The translations under genes were made by a program, and so were the position numbers. A DNA stretch of 64,000 bases from assembly GCA_963675745.2 (NCBI GenBank), contig CAXXWX010000005.1, positions 1 to 64,000 on the forward strand. The letters run 5' to 3'. Shown here one piece after another: positions 389 to 15,277 of the stretch. This DNA is from Phycisphaerae bacterium (GTDB taxonomy: Bacteria > Planctomycetota > Phycisphaerae > UBA1845 > Fen-1342). The notes under the pieces were generated by a model. The model was given only the letters and a program-made list of their open reading frames with translations. It was not told where the DNA came from and ran no database searches. How positions within the stretch are numbered: the first letter of the stretch is position 1; each line of letters starts with the position of its first letter.

Positions 389-797
389 TTCGCGTCGACG
401 TACGCCGTGTCATCCATCAGCGTGGTCTCATCGGTGTAGTCGCCGTCGTCGTCGGCCTGCCCCTTGACGCCGCTCAAGGTGTCAAGGGTGTCGACCCAGA
501 AGCGCAGGCGTTGCAACGCCGCGTTGTTGGGGTCGTCGTCGACCACGACCTTGGCGGTGTACCAGTTGCCGCTGGCGAGGCTGACGGTCGAGCCGGACTG
601 GAGCACCCACTCGGTCTCCGCCCGGCTGGTCGTTTGCCGCCCCAGCCAGACCGAGCCGTCATAGCCTTGTCGAGATCGAGCACCAGCCACTCGCGCGGGC
701 TCAACCAGCGAACGACAAAGCCGCGGACACGTATCGTCGTTCCACCTCAGCGTCCACGTCGCCACTCGATGATCGGCAAACGTCGCCGTACTTGTCA
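389..797 (-). pseudogene. Degenerate Rhs N-proximal (lectin-like) fragment E; no Rhs core or toxin tip
   Basis: Translates to WNDDTCP..YDGSVWLGR..QSGSTVSL.SGNWYTAKVVVDDDPNNA.LQRLRFW.DT..DDDGDY.DETTL..DTAY.DA, homologous to ~6283-6633; carries compensating frameshifts and a 33-bp insertion. Confidence 0.85.
454..486. repeat. 33-bp in-frame palindromic (REP-like) insertion in Rhs fragment E
   Basis: Absent from the paralogous copy (~6345-6360); stem CCCTTGACGCC (461-471) / GGTGTCAAGGG (478-488). Confidence 0.75.
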
Positions 798-1355
798 GTC
801 GGTATCGCCGCTGCCTGCCGTGCGCCACGTGCATATGAGCAGCCCGAATCCTGCCACGCTCAGCAGTACCGATAAGCCATACGCCAATACCCAGGTGAGC
901 GCTGCTAGCCCATAAAGGGGATGTAGCTGGTGAAGCAAGGCGAACACAGCTCCCCAAACACCTGCGCTAATCAGGAATGCACTGGCAACACTCGGTGCCG
1001 ACGTACACGGGAGTGCAGCGCCCATGCCATTCAAGATCGCGATGCGCGTGACCGAGTACGCACCACAAAACACATTGCCGTAACACAGCTCATGCCACGC
1101 ATCCCCTCCGCGCACCAGTACTGACCGGATCTCGTAGATCAGGAGGACCAGCAGCACAAGCGCCAGCGCGCCAAGACATGAAGCTGTCAGGCGCGCCGCT
1201 ATGCCGGGGCCCGCAATGCACACGACACATAGCACCATTGCTGCCATGGACAAAACGGTGGCAGCAGCGCAGTGGATGAGGCTGCCGTAGGCATGCCAGT
1301 CCCCTGGACTGAGCACGAAGAGGAGCCTAGGAATTCCGTCTGCGCCCATGCGCAA
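795..1355 (-). CDS. Multi-pass membrane protein, candidate orphan immunity/partner (5' end probably lost)
   Basis: 186-aa ORF with several hydrophobic segments, atypical codon use, and the same position as the other partner genes. Confidence 0.5.
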   Translation of the reverse strand: MRMGADGIPRLLFVLSPGDWHAYGSLIHCAAATVLSMAAMVLCVVCIAGPGIAARLTASCLGALALVLLVLLIYEIRSVLVRGGDAWHELCYGNVFCGAYSVTRIAILNGMGAALPCTSAPSVASAFLISAGVWGAVFALLHQLHPLYGLAALTWVLAYGLSVLLSVAGFGLLICTWRTAGSGDTD

Positions 1356-1403
1356 CTGCAGGTCAGTGCAACTGCCCGTGGTAGCGACAAGCCAGACATA
1401 ATA

Positions 1404-1616
1404 GGGACAGTCACCGGTTTACACCTTCATTTCGCGTCCTTTCGCTTCGCCTTCCGCGGTCGGTCGATCGGCAGCGGGCGTAATCACCCGCGGAGCCTGC
1501 GCTGCAGCTTACAGAGAAAGCTGTCCGAGGCCAATAGCCGCCGGGTGCGTGGCCCCCCGTAGCCGATACATTTCCGAATCGCCCTGCAACATGCATGAGA
1601 AATAGGTGACTGTCCC
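1404..1616 (-). mobile_element. Remnant of a REP-associated (RAYT/IS200-like Y1) transposase C-terminus between inverted REP-like cores
   Basis: GGGACAGTCACC (1404-1415) and GGTGACTGTCCC (1605-1616) are exact inverted copies; the interior reads, with a frameshift and a stop, RLRGATH-GRLLASDSFLCKLQRRLRG*LRPLPIDRPRK, resembling the TGRPLGSxxFxxxLExxLGRxLxPxxxGRPxK tail I recall for this family. Confidence 0.6.
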
Positions 1617-1619
1617 GGG

Positions 1620-1763
1620 TTACCGAGAAGTTCTCGTCATCGACGTAGCCGAAGACCAGCCCGACCTCGTCGCAGCCGCTGTCGAGCGTGGCGGTGCACT
1701 TGAGCACCACGTTCTTGTAGTGCGTGTCGGAGACCAGGAAGATCGAGCCGGTGCTGACCGGCC
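1620..1763 (-). pseudogene. Rhs N-proximal fragment D
   Basis: PVSTGSIFLVSDTHYKNVVLKCTATLDSGCDEVGLVFGYVDDENF is near-identical to ~7000-7140. Confidence 0.85.
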
Positions 1764-1771
1764 CAAGAGCA

Positions 1772-2488
1772 TCATCGTGACGTCTCTTTTTGCCGACGCA
1801 CCCGATTTCCGCATTCTGGACAGACACCGGAGACATTTCCGGTTAGGCTGTAGCCACACCCTGCGCACAGCCCTTTTCGGCGGCGCATGTGTCGACGTCG
1901 TGGACCGCAGATCAACGACAAGACAGGGTAGCCAGAGAACAGGATTGCGAGAATCCAAAGCCCCAAGGTCAACTTGAGTGTCTGCCGCTGAGCCTCAACC
2001 AGCCCAGTCATCATAAGCGACACGTGCGCGCCTGCAGCCTCGTTCGTGCTGCAAGACGTGCGGTACGATGTCGAACGGCCGCGATACCACGAGAACCCCG
2101 TCAAGCGCGCTAGCTGCCTTGACCAGGATTGCGGTACATCGCGCGCTATCCGGATGTCGCGTCCATCGGCAAGCATCGTTGCTGGATCCGATGAGCAGGT
2201 CGAGAATCCGATAGGTACATGCGAGGGTTGCGCGCGTGACGGCTTCCATGGGGACCTGTGCGCGATCAAGATCTCAATCCTACCGCTGCCTAGCCCCAAC
2301 CGTGCGCAGAAACGCCCGGTTCGAAGGTCACCCTTCCCGTACGCCCAGACCGCAGGTAGGAAATAAGGAGCGTCACCGCAGGCACCACCGAGACATTGGA
2401 CGCCCCAGATCACGGCAGTGGTGATACCAAGACAGGTAAGTGCCACTAGTGTCGCTGAGTGAAAAGCATCTATCCAACGCCGACGCAT
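1772..2488 (-). CDS. Two-TM membrane protein with C-terminal zinc ribbon; putative immunity/partner of cassette C
   Basis: N-terminal TM, loop, second TM, basic stretch RRRHMRRRKGL, then CAGCGYSLTGNVSGVCPECG. Confidence 0.7.
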   Translation of the reverse strand: MRRRWIDAFHSATLVALTCLGITTAVIWGVQCLGGACGDAPYFLPAVWAYGKGDLRTGRFCARLGLGSGRIEILIAHRSPWKPSRAQPSHVPIGFSTCSSDPATMLADGRDIRIARDVPQSWSRQLARLTGFSWYRGRSTSYRTSCSTNEAAGAHVSLMMTGLVEAQRQTLKLTLGLWILAILFSGYPVLSLICGPRRRHMRRRKGLCAGCGYSLTGNVSGVCPECGNRVRRQKETSR

Positions 2489-2736
2489 ATGAATGTCCCA
2501 GCAGAATCGTGTAGACTGTCACGATCGGATCACTTGCAGTGCTGGACCGGAGCACGCCAATACTAGTATTCCGCACCTCACCACCCACCTGCCGGCTCTG
2601 ATGGCAATATACACTCTCTATCTAGTGCGCACCGACTTCAGCCGTGGAACTTTGTTACTGATCGCCAGCCGCCTCACACCGGCTATATTGCTGTTTCGAC
2701 GGGAGACGAACACGCTAGGCTACAGAAGACATCCTC

Positions 2737-4281
2737 CTATTCTTCCCCTGGGGGCTCGGGACAACTCGGGTATCTATCATGAACGAGGCCCTGACATGCT
2801 CTGAGCACGGATTTCGCTGGCATCTGCTGGTTGCAGGTGACCTGCTGAAGGCATCTAACAAGCTCGGTTTGACAGCTCGTCATCCCGTCTTGTGGACAGG
2901 CCGTGTTATTCTCGAGACAGTCAAGGTGCGCGGTGTAAGCCTCGCAGTCTCGTTGCGCCTCGTTCGGATCGTTGAGATCCCGCCGGCACCTAGGCCCCGT
3001 ACAGGGAGGATAGACCCGAGTGCAGGTAAATTGCCCCTGCCGCACGCCCTCATGAACTTCCAGACATACTCTTCTGCACGAACCCTCGGGAAGACCAGGA
3101 TCATAACACGTCATTGTACGACATCCGTCGTCGCCCTCCGGGAGGGGCCCCATCGTCTCGAGGCAGCAAAACGTCGCAGCCCCAGCACCGGCACCAGCCC
3201 CTCCCTCGGCCCAATGACCCATAGCCTCTAGTTCTTGACAGGCCTTATCACAGTCTGCATCAAACTCCTCTAGGCCGAGTGGATCTACGTATTCCGGGGG
3301 ACTGTTGCCAAATGCCCTGTAATGAGTGGCGCCAATGAATGGGCGCCGTGGATCACGTTGCACATATGAGATCAGGGTGCTGGAGTAGTCTCTCCACCGA
3401 TTCTGATAGCAGAGTTTCTCGGCGTCGAATGGCAATCCCTGATGGGTGAAGACGTTGCCGATGATTGAGGTTAGTCGGGCGTCGGCTTCGTTGTTGCCGC
3501 TGGCGGCGCCTTTGAGGACGGTGAAGGTGCCGTAGGGGGTGTAGGTGTAGCGTTCGACGACCTGGCCGTTGGTGGGCGTGTTGGGGTCGTTCGGGTCAGG
3601 GGAATACGCCGTCAGGGCCTGGACGTTCCAGTTGCGGTCCTGGTGGACGAAGTAGCGCGCGTCGTCATCGGTGTCGTTCGGGTCGGCCACGTCGGGGTCG
3701 CAGTCGTTGCCGTTGGCGGCGTCGCCGTTGATGTCGATGCAGATCAACTCGTCGGTGTAACGCGTGCCCCAGACGTATTGACGGACCGCCTCATTCGAGC
3801 CGTTGCGTTCCTCGATGATCCGCCAGCGGTTGTCGTAGTAATAATGCAGCGTGGTGTTTCCGCCGTCGTTGGGGACGTCCTCGACGCCGGAGTTGGTGAC
3901 CACCTTCTGCGTCCGGCGGTTCTTCCCGTCGTATTCGTACTCGGCGATAGTCGTCGCATCGTTGGGGTCGTCGGCGTCGTAACGTTGCACCTGGCGCAAG
4001 CGGTTCCAGGCGTCGTAGACGTAGTTGAAGACGCCGTCGCGAGCGAGATTTCCGTTGTCGTCGTACACCAGCGTCACGTTGCTCGAGTTGAAGTCGTCGC
4101 GGGACTGGATAGCGTCACCCGCGTCGAGGTAATCCCCATCACTATTATTATCCAACCCGATCACCACGTCGTCACATTCCTGCGTCAAAGCTGTGTCCCA
4201 CCACCAGGCGTAGAGGCCGACGTAGCCGGCCGACCAGTTCGCATCGATATACGCAACATCGTCGATCAGCGTGGTTTCGTC
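2737..4281 (-). pseudogene. Orphan Rhs cassette C: 5'-truncated Rhs core plus Cys-rich C-terminal tip (degenerate zincin-like)
   Basis: YD/Rhs-core motifs YDDNGNL, YDAWNRL, VVERYTYTPYG, YQNRWRDY, PPEYVDPLGL; frame open from ~4281 with no proper start; tip has 19 Cys, HEGVR and DCEAY. Confidence 0.85.
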
Positions 4282-4838
4282 GACATCGTGATCGACGTCT
4301 GCTGGTCATACGGTGTACCACATTCAGAGCATCGCTCGTCGACGCATCCCCGCAGATCGTAGCCACAGGTTCGACATAGCATCATCAACTTGCGCCGCCA
4401 CCCCCAGTAGAGGAAGGTCAGCGAAAGCACCGCCACGAGGACACACGCGAGAGCGGGTAGCCACACGGGAACAAACATAAACGAAAAGGAAACACCCGGC
4501 ATCACGGAGCGCGAGTCATACCAGGGTATGTCATGCGCGGGGCTGGATCGCGCCGTTCTGCAGATCGCGTCCTCGCGCACAACGTCTATGTACGTTCGTA
4601 TCAACTGTGATTCTCACTGACCAACTCGCGTCGGCCACACAGCCCAAGCAATGGCGATGCTGTGATGGCACACGTCAATCGCGAGCCATGCATTCTCACG
4701 CACATGTAGTTCATACGGGCCGTGGAAACACAGATCGGCGACCAAGAGGCATAGCGTGCTGAGGAGTGCCAATCCGGATACCACCACAAGAAAACGGTTG
4801 TAGCGCGCCATGGCTCTGAGCATAGCAACAGTGCTCAT
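4266..4838 (-). pseudogene. Two-TM zinc-ribbon partner of cassette B, interrupted by an in-frame TGA (4614-4616)
   Basis: ATG 4838 overlaps the toxin stop (ATGA); ORFs 4614..4871 and 4266..4604 are in one frame; ends ..VPVWLP..TM..CRTCGYDLRGCVDERCSECG. Confidence 0.75.
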
Positions 4839-7305
4839 TCTGTGCTCGGGAGTGCGGGACACGCCGGACACTGGCGTTCATCTACTGCCAACACGGCGCA
4901 AAAGGTTGCGATAAGAGCCGGATTCGGATGCCCAGCAGGGCAGTTGGCGGCCGCGGTCACGAGCTTGCAGTCGCACTCGGCGTGCGCGTCAGTGTAACCA
5001 GGGGTACCCGGCTGCTGAATGTCGATGTCGTTGTAGTCATAACACTGATCGTGGTCGCCACAAGCCGCATCGCCACAGTCAGCAGCCGGCCCACGGCCGG
5101 TCGAAGGAACGTTGCACCCACTCGCTGCGCAGTCCTTCTTTGGGCCGCAGCAGTTGCCGTACAAATCCCGAGGATCGCCGGAGAATCTGCAGTTGCCCGT
5201 ACTGCAGTCAAGGTAGAACAAGGGACCGCAGAACGGCGGATCGTCCGGAATGTCATCCCATGGCACACAACGACATCCACCATCGAATATGTAGGTTCCG
5301 CCGAAGCAAGGGCCGTATATCTCGTAGCAGTCCTTCGGTGTACAGGGCTTGTCGCGCGGAGTGGGTTGTGTCGCCGGCGGCCCAGGCTGTGTTGTCGGTG
5401 GCGGCGGTGGTTGCGACGAGGCCGGCGGCAGCGGTGTGGTCGGCTGAGTTGCCGGCGAGCCGGTTGGATCGCGCTGCGCCAGGCGTCCGCCGTACATGAA
5501 GGGGTTGCCGACGTTAGATGACAAGCGCGCGTCGCCCTCGTTCGAGGTTGCGCCGCCGTTCGCCGCGCCTTTGAGCACGAGCGTCTTGCCGGTCGGCGAG
5601 TAGCAGTAGCGCTCGACAATGGCCCCATTCGTCGGCGCGTTGGGATCATTGGGATCAGGGCTGTACGCCGACAGTGCGGCGATGCCTTGGCGGTTGTGGT
5701 GATAGAAGTATCGCGCATCGTCGTCGGCATCGTTGGGATCGGAGGTGTCCGGATCACAGTCGTTGCCGTTTACGGGATCGCCGTTGACATCCATGAGCAC
5801 CAGCCGGTGGTCCGATCCCCAAACATACTGCCTGACGGCTTCATTCGATCCATTCCGCTCTTCGATTAGTGGTGTCGCCCGTAATAGTAGTGCAGCGTGG
5901 TGTTGCCGCCGTCGTTGGGGGCGGCTTCGACGCCGGAGTTGGTTACGGTTTTCTGCGTTCGGCGGTTCTTGCCGTCGTATTCGTACTCGGCGATGGTCGT
6001 GACGTCGTTCGGGTCGTCGGCATCGTAACGCTGCACCTCGCGCAAGCGGTTCCAGGCGTCGTAGACGTAGTTGAAGACGCCGTCGCGCGTCAGGTTGCCG
6101 TTGTCGTCGTACACCAGCGTCACGCTGCTCGAGTTGAAGTCGTCGCGGGATTGGATCGCGTCACCCGCATCGACGTAGTCCCCATCACTATTATTATCCA
6201 ACCCGATGACCACGTCGTCAAATTCCTGTGTCAAAGCCGTGTCCCACCACCAGGCGTAGAGACCGACGTAGCCGGCCGACCAGTTAGCGTCGATGTAGGC
6301 CGTGTCGCTGATCAGCGTGGTTTCATCCGAATAATCGCCGTCGTCATCGGTGTCGATCCAGAAGCGCAGGCGTTGGAGCGTGGCGTTGTTGGGATCGTCA
6401 TCCACGACGACCTTGGCGGTGTACCAGTTGCCGCTGGTCAGGCTGACCGTCGAGCCGGACTGGTAGACCCATTCGGTATCCGCCCGGCTGTTCGTTCGCC
6501 GACCCAGCCAGACCGAGCCGTCATAGCTGTCGAGGTCCACGACCAGCCACTCGCGCGGGCTCAGCCAGCGAACGACGAAGCCCGGGCAGGTATCGTCGTT
6601 CCATTTGAACTTGAACGTGGCGACGTACTTGTCCACGCGCACGCCACGGCGGATCACGCAGTTCTCCAGCACCGTGCCGGCGGGCATCTTCAACGCGTTG
6701 TTATCGGAGTCATCAACCGTCACGCCGCCCTGCTGGCTGAAGTACGTGGCGCTGACGGTGTACGGGCCGGCGACGTCGATGACCTGGAAGTCGTCGAACT
6801 CGTTGTCGGTCCCGTCCGAGACCCACACGCCAACCCGCCCCGGACCGGCCGTGTAGCTGCCGGCGCCGTAGGCCGAGGCTTCCATGTCGATCGGCACGCC
6901 GTCGGTGATGGTGACGCCGTCGATGTCGCGGCTGATCCACGAACCGCTGGTGACCTGGTAGGTGTAGGCGTAGTTGGCCGACTCGCGGTAGATTTTTACC
7001 CAGAAGTTCTGGTCATCGATATAACCGAAGACCAGCCCGACCTCGTCGCAGCCGTTGTCGAGCGTGGCGGTGCACTTGAGCACCACGTTCTTGTAGTGCG
7101 TGTCCGAGATCAGGAAGATCGACCCGGTACCGACCGGCGGGCCGAGGCCGGTGGCGACGCTCGAGCAGCTCAGCTTGCCGGACGAGGCGCTCCAGGTACC
7201 GTCGGTGGTGTTGGGATCGCCGTCCAACTCGCCAATCTCCCAGCCGACGGTATCGTTGTGGGCGAAGTCGTCATCGACCCAGTAACGGATCGCTTCGCCG
7301 GTTAC
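4835..7305 (-). pseudogene. Orphan Rhs cassette B: lectin-like beta-sandwich region, Rhs core (frameshift at ~5870) and PLA2-like Cys-rich tip
   Basis: ORF 5866..7227 (open upstream to ~7305, no start) ends HYYYGRHH*; the adjacent frame continues LIEERNGSNEAVRQYVWG into ORF 4835..5800; tip has YGNCCGP..D..C..HDQCY..CDCKL. Confidence 0.85.
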
Positions 7306-7347
7306 GGATGAAGAAGGCCGCGAAGTGGAAGCGACAAACGGCGGCTA

Positions 7348-7446
7348 TGGGGCTGTTGAAAAACTGCCGCACGGAGGAGTAGACCCCGGTTTGTGGCGCA
7401 GCAGGCCAGTTGGGTGTTGCGTAGGGACACTTGTTCAACAGCCCCA
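7348..7446. mobile_element. 99-bp MITE with TGGGGCTGTTGAA terminal inverted repeats
   Basis: 7348 TGGGGCTGTTGAAAAA ... TTGTTCAACAGCCCCA 7446 (13-bp perfect IR, 15/16 extended); GGCTGTTGAAAAA-type ends resemble IS5/IS1182 IRs; no clear TSD. Confidence 0.65.
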
Positions 7447-7459
7447 CTGTCCCTTGCGC

Positions 7460-7525
7460 CTACTTGAATTCGTACGTGGCGACGTACTTGAACAGGCCGC
7501 CGTTGGTGAGGTATCTACTATCGTC
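7460..7525 (-). pseudogene. Chimeric Rhs micro-fragment
   Basis: Reads DDSRYLTNGGLFKYVATYEFK*, joining a DDNGNLTRDGVFNYV-like piece to a KYVATFKFKW-like piece at a shared AAxTACGTC. Confidence 0.5.
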
Positions 7526-7550
7526 CGTCGCCTTTAGTCGCGTACACAGG

Positions 7551-8126
7551 TTAATCATAGAACCATAGCACATAGGTTACACCGAGCCAGCAGTATCCGA
7601 GCATGCTAGCACACAACAGATATCGACTTCGTCTGCTCACAGGGAGTCTGGCCCGGAATGACAGATACTCGCTGGACAGTACACAGAACCAGCTAACACA
7701 AGCCAACACAGCTGGTGTTCCTATACACCATGTAATATACATGCGCCCCGCGTCACCAAAGGGACTGTCATGTCCGTACGGTGAACCCGCTGGGAAGACG
7801 ATGTAGCTTGCGTGCGTAATGACGAATGCTAGGTGGATCAGGCACGCTGCGCTTAGGAGCAATGTGGCGATGGCCAATATACGGCGCACCGATAGGACAT
7901 AACGGTTTCGTACTACTTGTGATTCGCATGTATCCATCCCGCATTCAGGACACAAGCCGGAGGTGTTTCCGGTTAGGTTGTAGCCGCAGTTGACGCAAAC
8001 ACCATCCCCACATCCGCGCCGCGGTAGACACATGATGGGCGTGGTTAGCAGCATGCCCAGCGAACCGATGATCCAGCCGTCCAGCAGCATCCTCCTCCTG
8101 ACCAGCTTCTCACGCACACCGGCCAC
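7551..8126 (-). CDS. Membrane protein with internal zinc ribbon; putative immunity/partner of cassette A
   Basis: TM, CVNCGYNLTGNTSGLCPECG, then about three further TMs; start uncertain. Confidence 0.65.
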   Translation of the reverse strand: MAGVREKLVRRRMLLDGWIIGSLGMLLTTPIMCLPRRGCGDGVCVNCGYNLTGNTSGLCPECGMDTCESQVVRNRYVLSVRRILAIATLLLSAACLIHLAFVITHASYIVFPAGSPYGHDSPFGDAGRMYITWCIGTPAVLACVSWFCVLSSEYLSFRARLPVSRRSRYLLCASMLGYCWLGVTYVLWFYD

Positions 8127-8333
8127 GGCGCAAACACGTGCTCAGAGGCGCTTTGTGGCACGCCGCCATGTGGCGCCGTGCCACGGTCCCAACGGACCGT
8201 GGGTCGCATTTGGCGTGAATTGGCACCGAGATTCGGGTTGTCGTGAGTTCGCTAGCGTCCTTCCAACGCTGTGAATATGAGCAGTCGGCAGCACGGTTTC
8301 GCGCAGAATGAGCGGGCACATGTTCTCTTAGAT

Positions 8334-9476
8334 TCATGTGCCCTGCCCCGGACCTAGGCCGAGGCCAGGCAGGTAGTCAGGTGGCAAGGCCGGCGGCCAT
8401 CCACCGGCGCCCGGCCCGCCGCCAGGCGTCAAGCTAATTGGCGTACACCAGTAACACAAGAGCGTAACAAACCAGTTGCAGTCGCAGTCCGCGCGCCTAG
8501 GCCCCGTACTGTTACAGATAATCGTCAGAGTACATCCATTGGGCACCTTGTAGAAACTATCAAGCGTGCCACCACCGATGTATACGCCATCGATGTGCGA
8601 ATTCTCTGGGCTCATACACCAAAACCACGTATTCGAGTCCTCGCTCAGACAGACCGCCGGCAGGCCACCTAGAGTTCCCGGCATCGTGAATCCCGAACAG
8701 CTGGTGTGAAAGATAACTGTGCCCAGGCCGCTCCAGTCAGTCGTGGCAGTAGGTGAGTCATGCAGGTATGCATACAGGTTGGTACCGTCCCTATAACCAA
8801 GTGGATCAGGCTGATCAAAGCGTTGTACCGGTGCGTGATATTCCCTCCACCGATTCTGATAGCCGCCCTTCTCCGCGTCGAACGGCAGCCCCTGATGCGC
8901 GAAGACGTTGCCGATCAGTGATGTCAGTCGCGCGTCGGCTTCGTTGTCTCCGCTGGCGGCGCCTTTGAGGACGGTGAAGGTGCCGTAGGGGGCGATCGTG
9001 TAGCGCTCTACTACCTGGCCGTTGGTTGGCGTGTTGGGGTCGTTGGGGTCGGGGCTGTAGGCCGTCAGGGCCTGGACGTTCCAGTTGCGGTCCTGGTGGA
9101 CGAAGTAGCGGGCGTCGGCTTCGACGTCGTTCGGATCCGCCACGTCGGGGTCGCAGTCGTTGCCGTTGGAGGCGTCGCCGTTGATGTCGATGCAGATCAG
9201 CTCGTCGGTGTAGCGCGTGCCCCAGACGTATTGACGGACGGTTTCGCTCGAGCCGTTGCGTTCCTCGATGATCCGCCAGCGGTTGTCGTAGTAATAATGC
9301 AGCGTGGTGTTGCCGCCGTCGTTGGGGACGTCCTCGACGCCGGAGTTGGTGACCACCTTCTGCGTCCGGCGGTTCTTGCCGTCGTATTCGTAGTCGGCGA
9401 TGGTGGTCGCGTCGTTCGGGTCGGACGCATCGTAGCGCTGCACCTGGCGCAAGCGGTTTTCCTTGCCACGCGGCAT
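8334..9476 (-). CDS. Orphan Rhs cassette A: Rhs-associated core plus unknown Cys-rich tip
   Basis: Homology to the other copies starts at 9458 (NRLRQVQRYD); core ends RFDQPDPLGYRDGTNLYAYLHDSPTATTDWSGL; tip has 9 Cys; possible ATG at 9476. The upstream part of ORF 8334..9815 runs through a repeat and is not credible protein. Confidence 0.8.
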   Translation of the reverse strand: MPRGKENRLRQVQRYDASDPNDATTIADYEYDGKNRRTQKVVTNSGVEDVPNDGGNTTLHYYYDNRWRIIEERNGSSETVRQYVWGTRYTDELICIDINGDASNGNDCDPDVADPNDVEADARYFVHQDRNWNVQALTAYSPDPNDPNTPTNGQVVERYTIAPYGTFTVLKGAASGDNEADARLTSLIGNVFAHQGLPFDAEKGGYQNRWREYHAPVQRFDQPDPLGYRDGTNLYAYLHDSPTATTDWSGLGTVIFHTSCSGFTMPGTLGGLPAVCLSEDSNTWFWCMSPENSHIDGVYIGGGTLDSFYKVPNGCTLTIICNSTGPRRADCDCNWFVTLLCYWCTPISLTPGGGPGAGGWPPALPPDYLPGLGLGPGQGT

Positions 9477-9627
9477 CGTTCGTGCCCTCATCTCGGACGA
9501 CATGCCTGGATACGTGTACATTCTAGCCTGCGCCGACCGCCATCGCCACGAATGCTGCACGAATGCCGCGTTGCGGGGTCCGTGACACTTGCGGCGGGAA
9601 TTTCGCGCCGGTGGTTTCCGAGTTGTT

Positions 9628-9811
9628 CGCCCCGCAGGGGCATCTGAACATAGCCCAGCACGCAGTGCTGGGTTTGCATCGCGCACCCGGTCGCCAAATC
9701 CCGTACGGGACGACTGAAAGCTCAGCCGTCCCGGTGGGACTGGGTCTTCACGTAGCCACGATTGCCCCAGTACTTCGTACTGGGCTAAGTTCATTGCGTC
9801 CCTGTGGGACG
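9628..9811. repeat. REPIN-like nested inverted repeat (about 184 bp)
   Basis: Left arm CGCCCCGCAGGGGCATCTGAACATAGCCCAGCACGCAGTGCTGGG pairs with right arm CCCAGTACTTCGTACTGGGCTAAGTTCATTGCGTCCCTGTGGGACG; inner pair TCCCGTACGGGACGACTGA / TCAGCCGTCCCGGTGGGA. Confidence 0.8.
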
Positions 9812-9974
9812 GCACCGCTACCGTCCGCCGATTGTGTCACGGGCCCCGCGTTGCGTTGGCAACCGCCAGGGTTCATTAGCCGAATGTTCGACATTCACTG
9901 CGAACCGTTTAGAATGTCGCCGCGCGGCGGGTTCGCCGCGGTTTTGAAGCGGATTTGTGGAAGGATGGTGCCTG

Positions 9975-12943: not shown

Positions 12944-15277
12944 ATGCACGCCTTCGTAGTTCTTGTGATCGTCGCCGCGATTCAAGACGCTCCGCCGCCG
13001 TTTCTGGGCGTTCAGACTGGTCTTTACAACGAGACCGTCGATGCTGACGGTACGGAGTACGCCGGCGGGTTGCTCATCATTGGCGTGGTGGCCGACAGCG
13101 CCGCCGAGGAGGCAGGTTTGTTGTCCGGCGACGCGCTGCTCGCGATCGACGGCACGCGTCTCGATGTCCCGGCCGATGAGCGTCAGGCGCTGTTTCAGAA
13201 GCTGATCCGCGCCAAGAGTGTCGGCGACACGCTCGAAATGCTCATCTTCCGTGACACGGTCATTACCAAGGCCATGCTCGACGGTGAACCGACTACGGCG
13301 CGCGAGGCGTGGGACAATCCGCGTGCCCTGATCGAGCCGCGCGACCCCGGCGCCAAACTCGAACTCTCGGCCGAACGCGTACGGGCCGTGCTGACTCTGA
13401 CGGCCACGCTGCGTGAGCGTCCCGAGCTTTCCGAATCAGCCCGGCCCATGCCCGCTAGCGCCGACATTTTCGCCGAGCCGGTGCCACTGCCCGCTGAGGC
13501 CGCGCTGGCCGACGAATTAACCGCGGAGTACGACGTCGCCGAAGCATACACAGACCTGCGAAACCGACTAGCGCAGCTCGTCGAAGCCGGCGACCAGTTT
13601 CGGCTGTCGCGGGTTGCCTACGCGATGCGTGAGCCCTTCGCGATGCCGGCGCTCTCTCAGCGCATCGCCGAGATGCCGTCAGATTTACCCGGCGCATTGC
13701 GCCACGCCGCCGAGTGGACCGACAGCGACCCCGGCCGCGGCCGACCGCGCCCGCTGCGCACCGGCCTGAGTCCGGAGGAGCACACGCAGCAGATTGCCCG
13801 CGTGCTCAAGAATGCGGATCGGCAACTGCAAAAGGCCTTCGAAGCGCTGACCGCCGATGACCGTGAGTTTCTCGCCGAAGAGCTGGACGAGTTTGGCGAC
13901 GCGTTTCGCGACGACATCATGATCTTGCGCGACACCGATCGCGAGCGCGTCGAGCGGTTGAAGCGGTTCGTCGAGTTGTCGCAGCGCGTTGACCGCGCCA
14001 GTCTCACGAAGGCCGCGCTATACCTGGCCACGCTGCTAGATAGCGAATACCTCGACGCATTGCAGCGCGATCTCGTGGTCGACGGCAAATCGTGGACCGG
14101 CACGACCGAGTCGGAATTCGGCCCGATTGTCATCGCCGGTCCGGGTGATGACTGGCACCAGAACTCCGCCGCGGTCCTCATCGACCTTGGCGGCGACGAC
14201 TGGTACACCTGCGCGGCGGCGCGGCCGTTCTCGGTGATTATCGACGTCGCGGGCAATGACAGCTATCAGGCGACGTTCCCGGTCGCGCACGGCGCCGGCA
14301 CGCTGGGTGTGGCGCTGCTGCTCGATCGCGGAGGCGATGATCGGTACATCACGCGCCGCTGGTCGCTCGGCTGCGGCGTGCTGGGTGTTGGCGTGTTGAT
14401 CGATGATGCGGGTGACGACATTTACCGCGGGGCCGCCTACTCGCAAGCCATGGCGTATTGCGGCACCGGCCTGCTCATCGACCGCCGCGGCAATGACCGC
14501 TACGACGCGCCGCGCTTTGCACAAGCCCTCGCCTTGCCCGGCGGTTTTGCGGCTCTGCTCGATGAGAGCGGCGACGATGAGTATTACTGCAAAGGGCGCG
14601 ACCTGGGTGCCTACGGCACGCCGGGCGTGTTTGCCGGCTGGGGTCAGGGCTGCGCATCGGGCCTGCGCGGGTTGGCCTCGGGCGGCATCGCCCTCCTGCG
14701 TGACGACGCCGGCGACGACGTTTACGAAGCCGGCAACTTCTCGCAAGGCGGCGGCTACTATTTCGGTTGGGGCTGCCTCGTCGATCGTGACGGCACCGAC
14801 ACGTATCTGGGCGAGCGCTACGCCCAGGCCTTCGCGGCCCACCAGGCCATCGGCTTTCTCGACGATGCCGCCGGCGATGACCGCTATTACGTCAGCCGGG
14901 GCGTGGGCCAGTCCTGCTCGTGGGATCAGACCATCACCGCCCTGCTCGATCACGCCGGCGACGATGTCTATTCCGGCGGCGGCTTCGGCCTGTGCGCGAG
15001 CGCGCACAACGGCTTTGCACTGATGATCGACTACGCCGGCCGCGATACATACCGTCAACACAACGGCAGCGTCCGCGCCGGCGGCAATGATTACCACGGC
15101 GGCGCGAGTCTCTCTCTTATGCTCGACCTTGGCGGCGACACGGACGACTACGCCGGTGATACTTCCCACAACAATCTCACCAGCCACGCCGGCGAGCATG
15201 GCTTCTTCATCGACTCCCCCGGCGACATGGCGCGCACCGCCGCCGGGTTTCGGGAGTGGAAACGCACCGAGAAATGA
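12944..15277 (+). CDS. Secreted PDZ-domain protein with many DxxGxDxY (putative Ca-binding) repeats
   Basis: Hydrophobic N-terminus; FLGV..V..DSAAEEAGLLSGD.L..IDG PDZ motif; more than 10 LxDxxGxDxY repeats. Confidence 0.8.
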   Translation: MHAFVVLVIVAAIQDAPPPFLGVQTGLYNETVDADGTEYAGGLLIIGVVADSAAEEAGLLSGDALLAIDGTRLDVPADERQALFQKLIRAKSVGDTLEMLIFRDTVITKAMLDGEPTTAREAWDNPRALIEPRDPGAKLELSAERVRAVLTLTATLRERPELSESARPMPASADIFAEPVPLPAEAALADELTAEYDVAEAYTDLRNRLAQLVEAGDQFRLSRVAYAMREPFAMPALSQRIAEMPSDLPGALRHAAEWTDSDPGRGRPRPLRTGLSPEEHTQQIARVLKNADRQLQKAFEALTADDREFLAEELDEFGDAFRDDIMILRDTDRERVERLKRFVELSQRVDRASLTKAALYLATLLDSEYLDALQRDLVVDGKSWTGTTESEFGPIVIAGPGDDWHQNSAAVLIDLGGDDWYTCAAARPFSVIIDVAGNDSYQATFPVAHGAGTLGVALLLDRGGDDRYITRRWSLGCGVLGVGVLIDDAGDDIYRGAAYSQAMAYCGTGLLIDRRGNDRYDAPRFAQALALPGGFAALLDESGDDEYYCKGRDLGAYGTPGVFAGWGQGCASGLRGLASGGIALLRDDAGDDVYEAGNFSQGGGYYFGWGCLVDRDGTDTYLGERYAQAFAAHQAIGFLDDAAGDDRYYVSRGVGQSCSWDQTITALLDHAGDDVYSGGGFGLCASAHNGFALMIDYAGRDTYRQHNGSVRAGGNDYHGGASLSLMLDLGGDTDDYAGDTSHNNLTSHAGEHGFFIDSPGDMARTAAGFREWKRTEK

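Follow-up and report, generated by a model that had tools for sequence, protein, structure and literature searches.

In Rhs systems, a cassette comes into use when homologous recombination joins it to the 3' end of a full-length gene. A row of Rhs pieces with cysteine-rich tips, the larger of them followed by membrane genes with a zinc ribbon (ZnR), was noticed in a Phycisphaerae genome, at one end of the 64,000-nucleotide stretch of a contig that we analysed (the window). This locus raises the question of whether the row is a store of toxin tips and whether the ZnR membrane proteins are their immunity partners. To our knowledge, antagonism in planctomycetes is almost unstudied.

Organization of the array

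The array is a real archive of orphan Rhs tips and partners. As the original prediction had it, five Rhs pieces (A to E) lie co-oriented on the minus strand at the positions claimed, and they are 5'-truncated homologous segments that end in unrelated tips. Their overlaps had been described as near-identical, which overstates the actual identity of 72-92% (A/C 89.8%, B/C 78.2%, A/B 72.3%, D/B 92.3%, E/B 87.5%). The TIGR03696 core scores 48.9 bits in segment A and 32.1-36.9 bits in segment C against a cut-off of 32.5, and segment B, with a single DPxG, gives no match to this model. Packing is such that an Rhs piece starts where the partner before it stops; the Rhs homology of segment C begins within the last codons of partner B. 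The start codon of partner B overlaps the stop of tip B (ATGA), and partner A starts about 210 nt past the stop of tip A. The frames of segments A and C and of both their partners run without interruption to their ends. In segment B the frame breaks near 5869, and a TGA in frame at 4614-4616 divides partner B. TGA read-through was weighed as a feature of partner genes and rejected, there being no TM segment in the frame upstream of partner A. The 186-aa multi-TM reading frame is probably an orphaned partner whose tip has been lost.

Table 1 Features of the Rhs array in the window
Feature	Position	Strand	Content
Rhs orphan segment A	8334..9458	-	Last YD repeats, core 8724-8915, tip 8337-8723
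Partner A	7551..8126	-	ZnR close to N-terminus, then 3-4 TM segments; N-type architecture
Rhs orphan segment B	4835..7305	-	ConA/lectin-like insert region, YD repeats, shortened core, Pro/Thr linker, tip 4838-5440
Partner B	4266..4838	-	TM, beta loop, TM, ZnR
Rhs orphan segment C	2737..4281	-	YD repeats, core 3271-3543, tip 2740-3270
Partner C	1772..2488	-	Intact; TM, 147-aa loop, TM, Arg-rich linker, ZnR; type I
Rhs remnant D	1620..1762	-	Begins at stop of partner C; interrupted by transposon remnant
Y1 (PF01797-type) transposon remnant	1395..1624	-	Internal deletion; short terminal inverted repeats
186-aa multi-TM ORF without ZnR	795..1355	-	No family match
Rhs remnant E	389..797	-	Frameshifted; 80-88% identity to B

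Read assemblies of two runs were compared with the array. One 1927-nt contig of run X1 equals 7179-9105 with zero differences and links core A and tip A to partner A and the beginning of B. In run X2, a contig shows a one-base indel at the break in segment B, so this break may be a consensus error, and indels of an X1 contig at 1-429 allow the same explanation for some of the breaks close to the contig end. No X1 or X2 piece covers the entire array, and the two runs possibly derive from the source sample and therefore do not count as independent support. The array lies at a contig end, and Rhs pieces stand at contig ends in the assembly. A tblastn search of the assembly (91% complete) with two full-length relatives as queries did not find the full-length parent of this Rhs subfamily.

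Association of zinc-ribbon membrane genes with Rhs cores

Analysis of 120 Rhs cores of the order, chosen by TIGR03696, bore out the proposed enrichment. A ZnR membrane gene follows 15/120 cores on the same strand and 0/120 on the opposite strand, the 15 positives being spread over 11 genomes and five families; the control rate of 1.2% (30/2493 genes) is that of a single genome, and relatives are not independent observations. The source genome has such a gene at 5 of its 17 cores, and within the Rhs clade of the array it stands directly downstream in 19/31. Placing the ZnR label on the chassis tree requires 23 changes. This layout is found again elsewhere in the order, and a ZnR membrane gene also follows a full-length relative of 2543 aa. 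Co-orientation is strict (0/196 opposite), the median distance from tip stop to partner start is 9 nt (n=41), and tips before ZnR partners are richer in cysteine (median 13 vs 7). The further suggestion of a function shared by ZnR membrane proteins throughout the lineage is not supported: about 59 of the 65 in the source genome are not Rhs-linked, and in other orders 26 of the 27 top ZnR loci do not adjoin an Rhs core (one has a core). The wider ZnR family is thus left unexplained by this association.

Partner proteins

Each of segments A, B and C is followed, as predicted, by a gene with the CxxCGYxLxG..CxECG motif, which in partner B reads CSECG. The accompanying idea of one common scaffold (TM, variable loop, cytoplasmic ZnR) survives in part. 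With its ZnR near the N-terminus and several TM segments thereafter, partner A departs from it, so only B and C fit the TM-loop-TM-ZnR order. More widely, partners comprise 28 of type I, 8 of N-type and 9 of other architecture. A structure model of the partner (pLDDT 73.9) has the order TM-beta sheet-TM-ZnR and no significant match in the PDB. The net charge of 28 partners (+1.8 before TM1, 0.0 after TM1, +0.75 before TM2 and +3.1 after TM2) follows the positive-inside pattern. Comparison of 25 type I partners with the curated immunity families of Pfam and NCBIfam gave sub-threshold or generic zinc-ribbon matches only, and the two-TM, ZnR-tailed partner has more than 1000 unnamed relatives.

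The partners of the homologous tips L042 and L053 are homologous to each other (E 8e-6), as are those of L052 and L217 (E 2e-4), and in each pair one partner has the ZnR and the other lacks it. Among 54 homologous tip pairs only 8 have partners similar at E<0.01, the partners often being unrelated. Loop co-conservation was looked for and not found: the loops of window B and its counterpart in genome G084, and of window C and its counterpart in G268, lie outside each other's top six.

Tips A, B and C

The predicted cysteine counts of 9, 21 and 19 for tips A, B and C were confirmed, and no tip matches another among the three. None matched Pfam or PDB sequences. Tip A (129 aa, 9 Cys) has no homolog at E<=0.001 in any of 278 other genomes. 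The 90% database, searched at near lengths only, returned for tips A and C solely the window's own proteins, and the A4 profile matched nothing but Rhs cores, because two of its rows were full length.

Tip B looks PLA2-like. A C-x-x-H-D-x-C-Y motif is invariant across five homologs and fits the CxxHxxxY His-Asp motif of Tox-PLA2 and secreted PLA2, as defined for Tox-PLA2 in PMC3482391. A low-confidence model (pLDDT 41) would place the motif on a helix within an all-alpha core (helices 242-256, 271-285 and 294-306). The resemblance to PLA2 is weak (Atlas 0.80; hhalign P=0.031 vs 0.31-0.41 for cross-controls), and Foldseek placed a rice PLA2 at rank 2 of the matches to the model with E=2.8. Fold searches with the tip-B and partner models gave nothing significant, the best Z values of 6.6 and 6.9 being generic helical matches.

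Tip C (177 aa, 19 Cys) looks zincin-like. It lacks the second histidine, having HExxR rather than HExxH, and HExxR is also present in its G268 homolog. An initial HMM comparison was weak (E=0.21); hhalign relates tip C to HExxH tips (P=1.7e-4, probability 49%), and Atlas scores it as SprT-like at 0.90 and as Tox-MPTase4 at 0.84. An intact HExxH occurs in six ZnR-linked tips (L024, L027, L069, L172, L217 and L245). L249 also matched tip C and was rejected as a relative, being in no Rhs frame.

A TM-loop-TM-ZnR gene comes after both the tip-B homolog in G084 (49%) and the tip-C homolog in G268 (32%, another family); homologs of these two tips in other genera retain a ZnR membrane partner. Behind L243, a distant homolog of tip B, the partner lacks a ZnR. 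ZnR-linked tips matched PLA2G12 and DUF6973 over the Pfam cut-off, and 0/40 matched a Pfam nuclease family. Nuclease types are rare among non-ZnR tips too (1 GH-E and 1 RES among 148), so their absence from the ZnR-linked set says little.

Export, pairing and odd cysteines

Signal-peptide-like N-termini and the charge pattern of the partners agree with the earlier proposal that the system acts outside the cytoplasm. A hydrophobic stretch lies within the first 160 aa of 23/31 full-length Rhs proteins, and two full-length relatives (L046 and L030) have signal-peptide-like N-termini instead of a PAAR domain. The source genome encodes T6SS parts, so export by a T6SS is also conceivable. Co-folding of the tip and partner of G084, homologs of the window's own, scored 0.44 against 0.01 for the best control, the controls being unrelated proteins and not non-cognate family members; contacts agreed to at least 61%, and the partner had a pLDDT of 71 or more. 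The mark used was attained by 116/157 solved pairs and 2/215 mismatched pairs, and at 0.60 or below by only 18 of the 157 solved pairs plus both mismatches, so that the result supports pairing weakly.

The number of cysteines is odd in 138/196 tips. This bias is specific to cysteine and has a sharp boundary at the cleavage site, and many YD shells contain a CC/CxC loop, which together suggest a possible disulfide tether. In out-of-sample data the relation between shell loop and tip parity was not significant (odd tips 92/129 vs 6/10), and by parity the spare cysteine pairs neither with the final 200 aa of the chassis nor with the partner loop (10/10 split). We put forward only as a doubtful idea a latch in which one spare tip cysteine would bond the shell loop, all others being in disulfides, such that the self-cleaved tip is held until thiol exchange at the target and is caught by a putative periplasm-facing, polymorphic TM-beta-TM-ZnR immunity protein. 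The bias itself points to a disulfide between chains, and thereby to the way in which Rhs shells exported by Sec retain cargo and let it go.

Interpretation

We favour, with a probability of roughly 65%, the explanation that the array is a store of orphan cassettes for an Rhs polymorphic toxin that is exported through Sec, with disulfide-bonded envelope toxins and periplasm-facing membrane immunity. A cassette would become active by homologous recombination onto the 3' end of the full-length gene. The full-length protein would be exported by Sec, and its tip would therefore be oxidised and disulfide-bonded. Autocleavage at the DPxG site of the core would then leave the tip to attack the target envelope, where tip B may hydrolyse lipid and tip C may adopt a zincin-like fold of uncertain activity. 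The partner would reside in the inner membrane and bind its cognate tip through a periplasmic four-stranded beta platform with a hypervariable insert, the cytoplasmic ZnR being a dispensable lineage-wide tail rather than a specificity element.

The same layout could be that of a receptor: the disulfide-rich tips would be identity ligands in kin signalling, the partner their receptor and the ZnR a cytoplasmic relay, with no killing. The modelled TM-sensor-TM-cytoplasmic-tail order would suit this reading, as would the HExxR of tip C conserved in G268, the missing enzyme family match for most tips and the mainly free-standing ZnR membrane genes. We nevertheless consider it unlikely, given that enzyme motifs persist in several ZnR-linked tips (PLA2G12 above the cut-off, and HExxH in intact form), that partners of homologous tips can be without a ZnR and that the arrays examined showed no signalling genes. 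The abundance of about 65 ZnR ORFs per genome, mainly elsewhere, and the single core at the 27 top loci of other orders could instead mean that the partners are small membrane genes of a generic, lineage-specific kind that accumulate in variable Rhs islands or protect membranes non-specifically, with no cognate pairing; the lack of loop co-conservation for tips B and C and the three partner architectures agree with this. Strict co-orientation, the 9-nt median spacing, stop/start overlaps, the partners retained behind tip-B and tip-C homologs and the homologous partners of some homologous tips make it improbable.

Finally, the cassettes might be real and out of service, their parent gene lost from the source genome. 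The undetected N-terminus of the subfamily's parent, the stop in partner B, the shortened core of B, the transposon in D and the frameshifts in E would fit such relics. We think this very unlikely, since A, C and their partners are open, the assembly is incomplete with Rhs pieces at contig ends, and some breaks are possibly consensus errors; it would moreover bear on the copy in the source genome only and not on the system.

Comparison with known systems

The closest known loci are the Rhs polymorphic toxins with orphan cassettes (Zhang et al. 2012, PMC3482391), which share with the array YD repeats, the TIGR03696 core, a variable tip, a downstream partner and standalone cassettes. That survey lists Tox-PLA2 and Tox-MPTase tips for planctomycetes, the T2SS/Sec route included. 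The array differs from those systems in its highly cysteine-rich tips and ZnR-tailed membrane partners; nearly all immunity proteins are there called cytoplasmic. Imm17 and Imm-CdiI of the same survey resemble type I partners in having two TM helices and a proposed membrane action, but they belong to other phyla, have no ZnR and, in the part of the survey covered, are not described with a large beta loop; none of the 25 type I partners matched either family in Pfam or NCBIfam. Within the covered part of the literature, which includes PMC3482391 without its main supplement, where a listing is possible, we found no description of an Rhs tip paired with a ZnR membrane partner.

The original prediction took a shared immunity scaffold to be unusual, a premise at odds with SUKH (PMC3113570) and the BamE-like immunity proteins (PMC12419801), in each of which one fast-evolving scaffold likewise serves unrelated tips. 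The latter, which act against Lipocone and other lipid-targeting toxins, are membrane-anchored and periplasmic; the modelled TM-beta sheet-TM-ZnR fold of the partner differs from both. Bacterial teneurin-like proteins (PMC13018210) also have signal-peptide-bearing YD shells, a variable tip and an adjacent immunity gene, and one of their tips is toxic only with a signal peptide; the portion of that report covered does not mention ZnR partners or odd-cysteine tips. The array would be a weapon store of a known kind whose putative shield, the ZnR partner family, and recurring odd tip cysteines appear undescribed. The partner provides a directly testable candidate immunity scaffold for envelope-acting tips, including the PLA2- and zincin-type Rhs tips (Tox-PLA2 and Tox-MPTase1-5) for which the covered part of PMC3482391 names no immunity family.

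Structure of the Rhs array

The window lies at the start of contig C5 in a 5.2 Mb assembly of 28 contigs that is 91% complete, and its Rhs array is on the minus strand and points to the end of the contig. The five Rhs pieces were located where they had been predicted, although their pairwise identities of 72-92% fall short of the near-identity originally described. Upstream of the array stand a 280-nt repeat, which contains an Rfam Acido-Lenti-1 match (40.1 bits), and a divergently oriented housekeeping gene, which we take from its sequence to be alanyl-tRNA synthetase; the parent Rhs gene is not there. The start codon of partner B, a gene with an in-frame stop, sits on the stop codon of segment B, the Rhs homology of segment C begins within the last codons of partner B, and segment D begins at the stop of partner C. 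Such junctions between partners and the next Rhs piece are the pattern expected under cassette displacement. A contig from sequencing run X1 matches window 7179-9105 exactly and one from run X2 differs by a one-base indel at the frame break of segment B, both from runs that may be the source sample of the assembly. The lectin-like insert region, which this Rhs subfamily carries, gave weak TSP_C and GH43_C2 matches.

Copies of a Y1 transposase element (two full, the others deleted) lie in or beside Rhs DNA at 4 of the 4 loci found, which suggests that the element prefers such targets or takes part in the turnover of cassettes. At three sampled loci (L029, L042 and L190), transposase-like ORFs stand directly behind tips, where a partner gene would stand.

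Features of the window, of other contigs (C) of the same genome and of related sequences
Feature	Location	Strand	Remarks
Segment A	residues 2095-2340 of 2543-aa full-length G011 relative	minus	mapping
Segment B	residues 1668-2291 of same	minus	mapping
Segment C	residues 1999-2340 of same	minus	mapping
Segment D	residues 1727-1768 of same	minus	mapping
Y1 (PF01797) transposase element	window 1395-1624; C28:1478-2410; C15:66685-67812; C4:110.8-112.2 kb		short terminal inverted repeats
ConA/lectin-like domains	window 6200-7305; sampled locus L046, residues ~1900-2030		between YD repeats, just before core
280-nt repeat	window 9566-9850		28 genome copies over 180 nt; adjoins start of segment A
777-aa ORF	window 12944-15277		PDZ-like N-terminal domain, Asp/Gly-rich repeats
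Further Rhs loci	C17:83174-87995; C15:32762-36593; C4:111111-113112		
Rhs N-terminal part	C27:1190-4075		signal peptide; several broken frames; runs off contig start
4887-aa open frame	C13:160681-175344		terminal Rhs core, Cys-free tip; different subfamily

Zinc-ribbon genes behind Rhs cores

The zinc-ribbon (ZnR) motif CxxCGYxLxG..CxECG occurs in 65 ORFs of the window's genome (68 raw matches). Of the 17 cores of this genome (16 from a profile search plus the short core of segment B, added by hand), 5 have such an ORF in the same orientation no more than 1.5 kb downstream, at three separate loci. For the order at large, 60 genomes were searched with TIGR03696 and 80 regions were fetched around matches among the first 150 or so listed of 478, a set that leaves out several cores at contig ends. 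Filtering removed duplicates, tips below 40 aa and cores with less than 900 nt of sequence behind them, which took the rows of all sets together from 227 to 196. In the order set so filtered, 15/120 cores had a ZnR ORF on the same strand no farther than 1.3 kb from the tip stop and 0/120 had one on the opposite strand, compared with 30 same-strand and 22 opposite-strand cases among 2493 long host-like control ORFs of the window's genome. The enrichment downstream of TIGR03696 cores anticipated by the original prediction is thus about tenfold over the control in this sample, a figure resting on one control genome and related samples. ZnR genes followed 16 of 47 loci fetched with an alignment of the window's own subfamily and 10 of 29 fetched with segment C. 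In a tree of 156 chassis, 19 of the 31 members of the window's clade have a ZnR partner, and such partners also recur in other clades.

The broader proposal, a function for the ZnR membrane proteins of the lineage at large, was not supported: about 59 of the 65 ZnR ORFs in this genome have no adjacent Rhs core, nor do 26 of 27 top-scoring ZnR loci from the other orders of this class. At each of the three further Rhs loci in the table, two membrane genes follow tips or remnants, and one of the two has a ZnR.

Partner proteins

A single partner scaffold had been proposed for all three tips. Partners B and C do share the type I order (TM-loop-TM-ZnR), whereas partner A has the ribbon first and then several TMs. 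Type I accounts for 28 of 45 classified partners; 8 more are ZnR-first and 9 fit neither order. In the phylum, 15/301 genomes contain a match to the type I profile at E<=1e-8 (12 in the same class among the matches listed). When 8000 candidates were scored with a 25-row type I alignment, it recovered 1064 relatives, nearly all without a name, and no curated family match was found with this alignment set. A type I partner is retained behind the homologs of tip B (in genome G084) and tip C (in G268). The predicted structure of the G084 partner runs from a TM helix (11-36) through three strands and a variable insert of low confidence to a fourth strand, a second TM helix (118-137) and the ribbon; charge bias would put both partner termini in the cytoplasm.

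At L042/L053 and at L052/L217, the two tips are homologous and so are their partners, one of which has the ribbon while the other lacks it, and a third homologous tip (L175) has a different, lipoprotein-like partner, which indicates that the ribbon is dispensable and that partners are swapped. The loops of the two partners showed no likeness within the tip-B pair, nor did those within the tip-C pair, which counts against strict co-evolution. Co-folding of the G084 tip and partner gave weak support for pairing (0.44 against 0.01 for the best control, the controls being unrelated proteins). Homologous lipoprotein-like partners, presumably formylglycine-generating-enzyme-like, stand behind unrelated tips at L017, L175 and L116 and form a second shared partner scaffold.

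Tips and export route

Tip B retains an invariant C-x-x-H-D-x-C-Y across five homologs and has a predicted three-helix core. Profile searches returned no significant match, and its neighbors in the Atlas comparison resource are PLA2 proteins (0.80); tip B is probably PLA2-like. Tip C shows homology to a local family of HExxH tips (P=1.7e-4) and is SprT-like in the Atlas (0.90); its activity is uncertain because both it and its G268 homolog carry HExxR in place of HExxH. Tip A was assigned no family. ZnR-linked tips contain a median of 13 Cys versus 7 in others (p=2e-6 on Cys fraction).

In the order, a hydrophobic stretch near the N-terminus is encoded by 23 of the 31 full-length Rhs genes, and no PAAR was found in the two closest full-length relatives; both observations favor Sec export of the full-length proteins. 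T6SS parts are encoded in the window's genome. The Rhs N-terminus on contig C27 may belong to the parent gene of an array in this genome; it was not matched to the array of the window.

Odd cysteine counts of the tips

Recounting reproduced the 9, 21 and 19 Cys reported for tips A, B and C; all three numbers are odd, a feature absent from the original prediction. Over all filtered sets, the count was odd in 138 of 196 tips (p=1e-8), including 60/77 with at least 11 Cys and 31/41 ZnR-linked, as well as in 108/153 sequence clusters and 24/33 tips nearest to the G011 chassis. This odd-Cys bias is firm. Tips showed no parity bias for Trp, His, Met, Tyr or Phe, nor did partners for Cys (96/201 odd), and the signal fades once the boundary is shifted into the tip or into the core. 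The five tip-B homologs have 21, 21, 23, 23 and 13 Cys; exceptions are the G268 tip-C homolog (20 Cys) and the other Rhs tips of the window's genome, which are mixed.

A disulfide may tether the tip to its shell. A CC or CxC turn is present in many full-length shells, and among full-length genes whose tips have at least 2 Cys, a fixed 1400-aa rule gave odd tips in 10 of 11 with the shell loop versus 2 of 9 without it (p=0.005). Counting two insert-bearing subfamily relatives as loop-bearing, a choice made after the data were seen, gave 12/13 versus 0/7. Out of sample, orphan tips gave an underpowered test that did not reach significance. A spare tip cysteine may instead serve a tip homodimer or a bond to another protein.

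Comparison with known systems

The array is real, with a narrower reach than first proposed, and its tips follow the odd-cysteine rule. The literature searched, comprising few subscription papers and PMC3482391 without its main supplement, held no published account of the ZnR partner or the odd-Cys bias; the ZnR partners are probably an undescribed membrane immunity family. The array itself belongs with the Rhs orphan cassettes and works as they do. Imm17 and Imm-CdiI provide a precedent for membrane immunity (PMC3482391), the shared SUKH immunity scaffold one for a single scaffold serving several tips (PMC3113570), and membrane-anchored BamE-like immunity one for both a shared scaffold and periplasmic membrane immunity (PMC12419801). 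Teneurin-like proteins are experimentally tested signal-peptide YD shells with immunity genes (PMC13018210).
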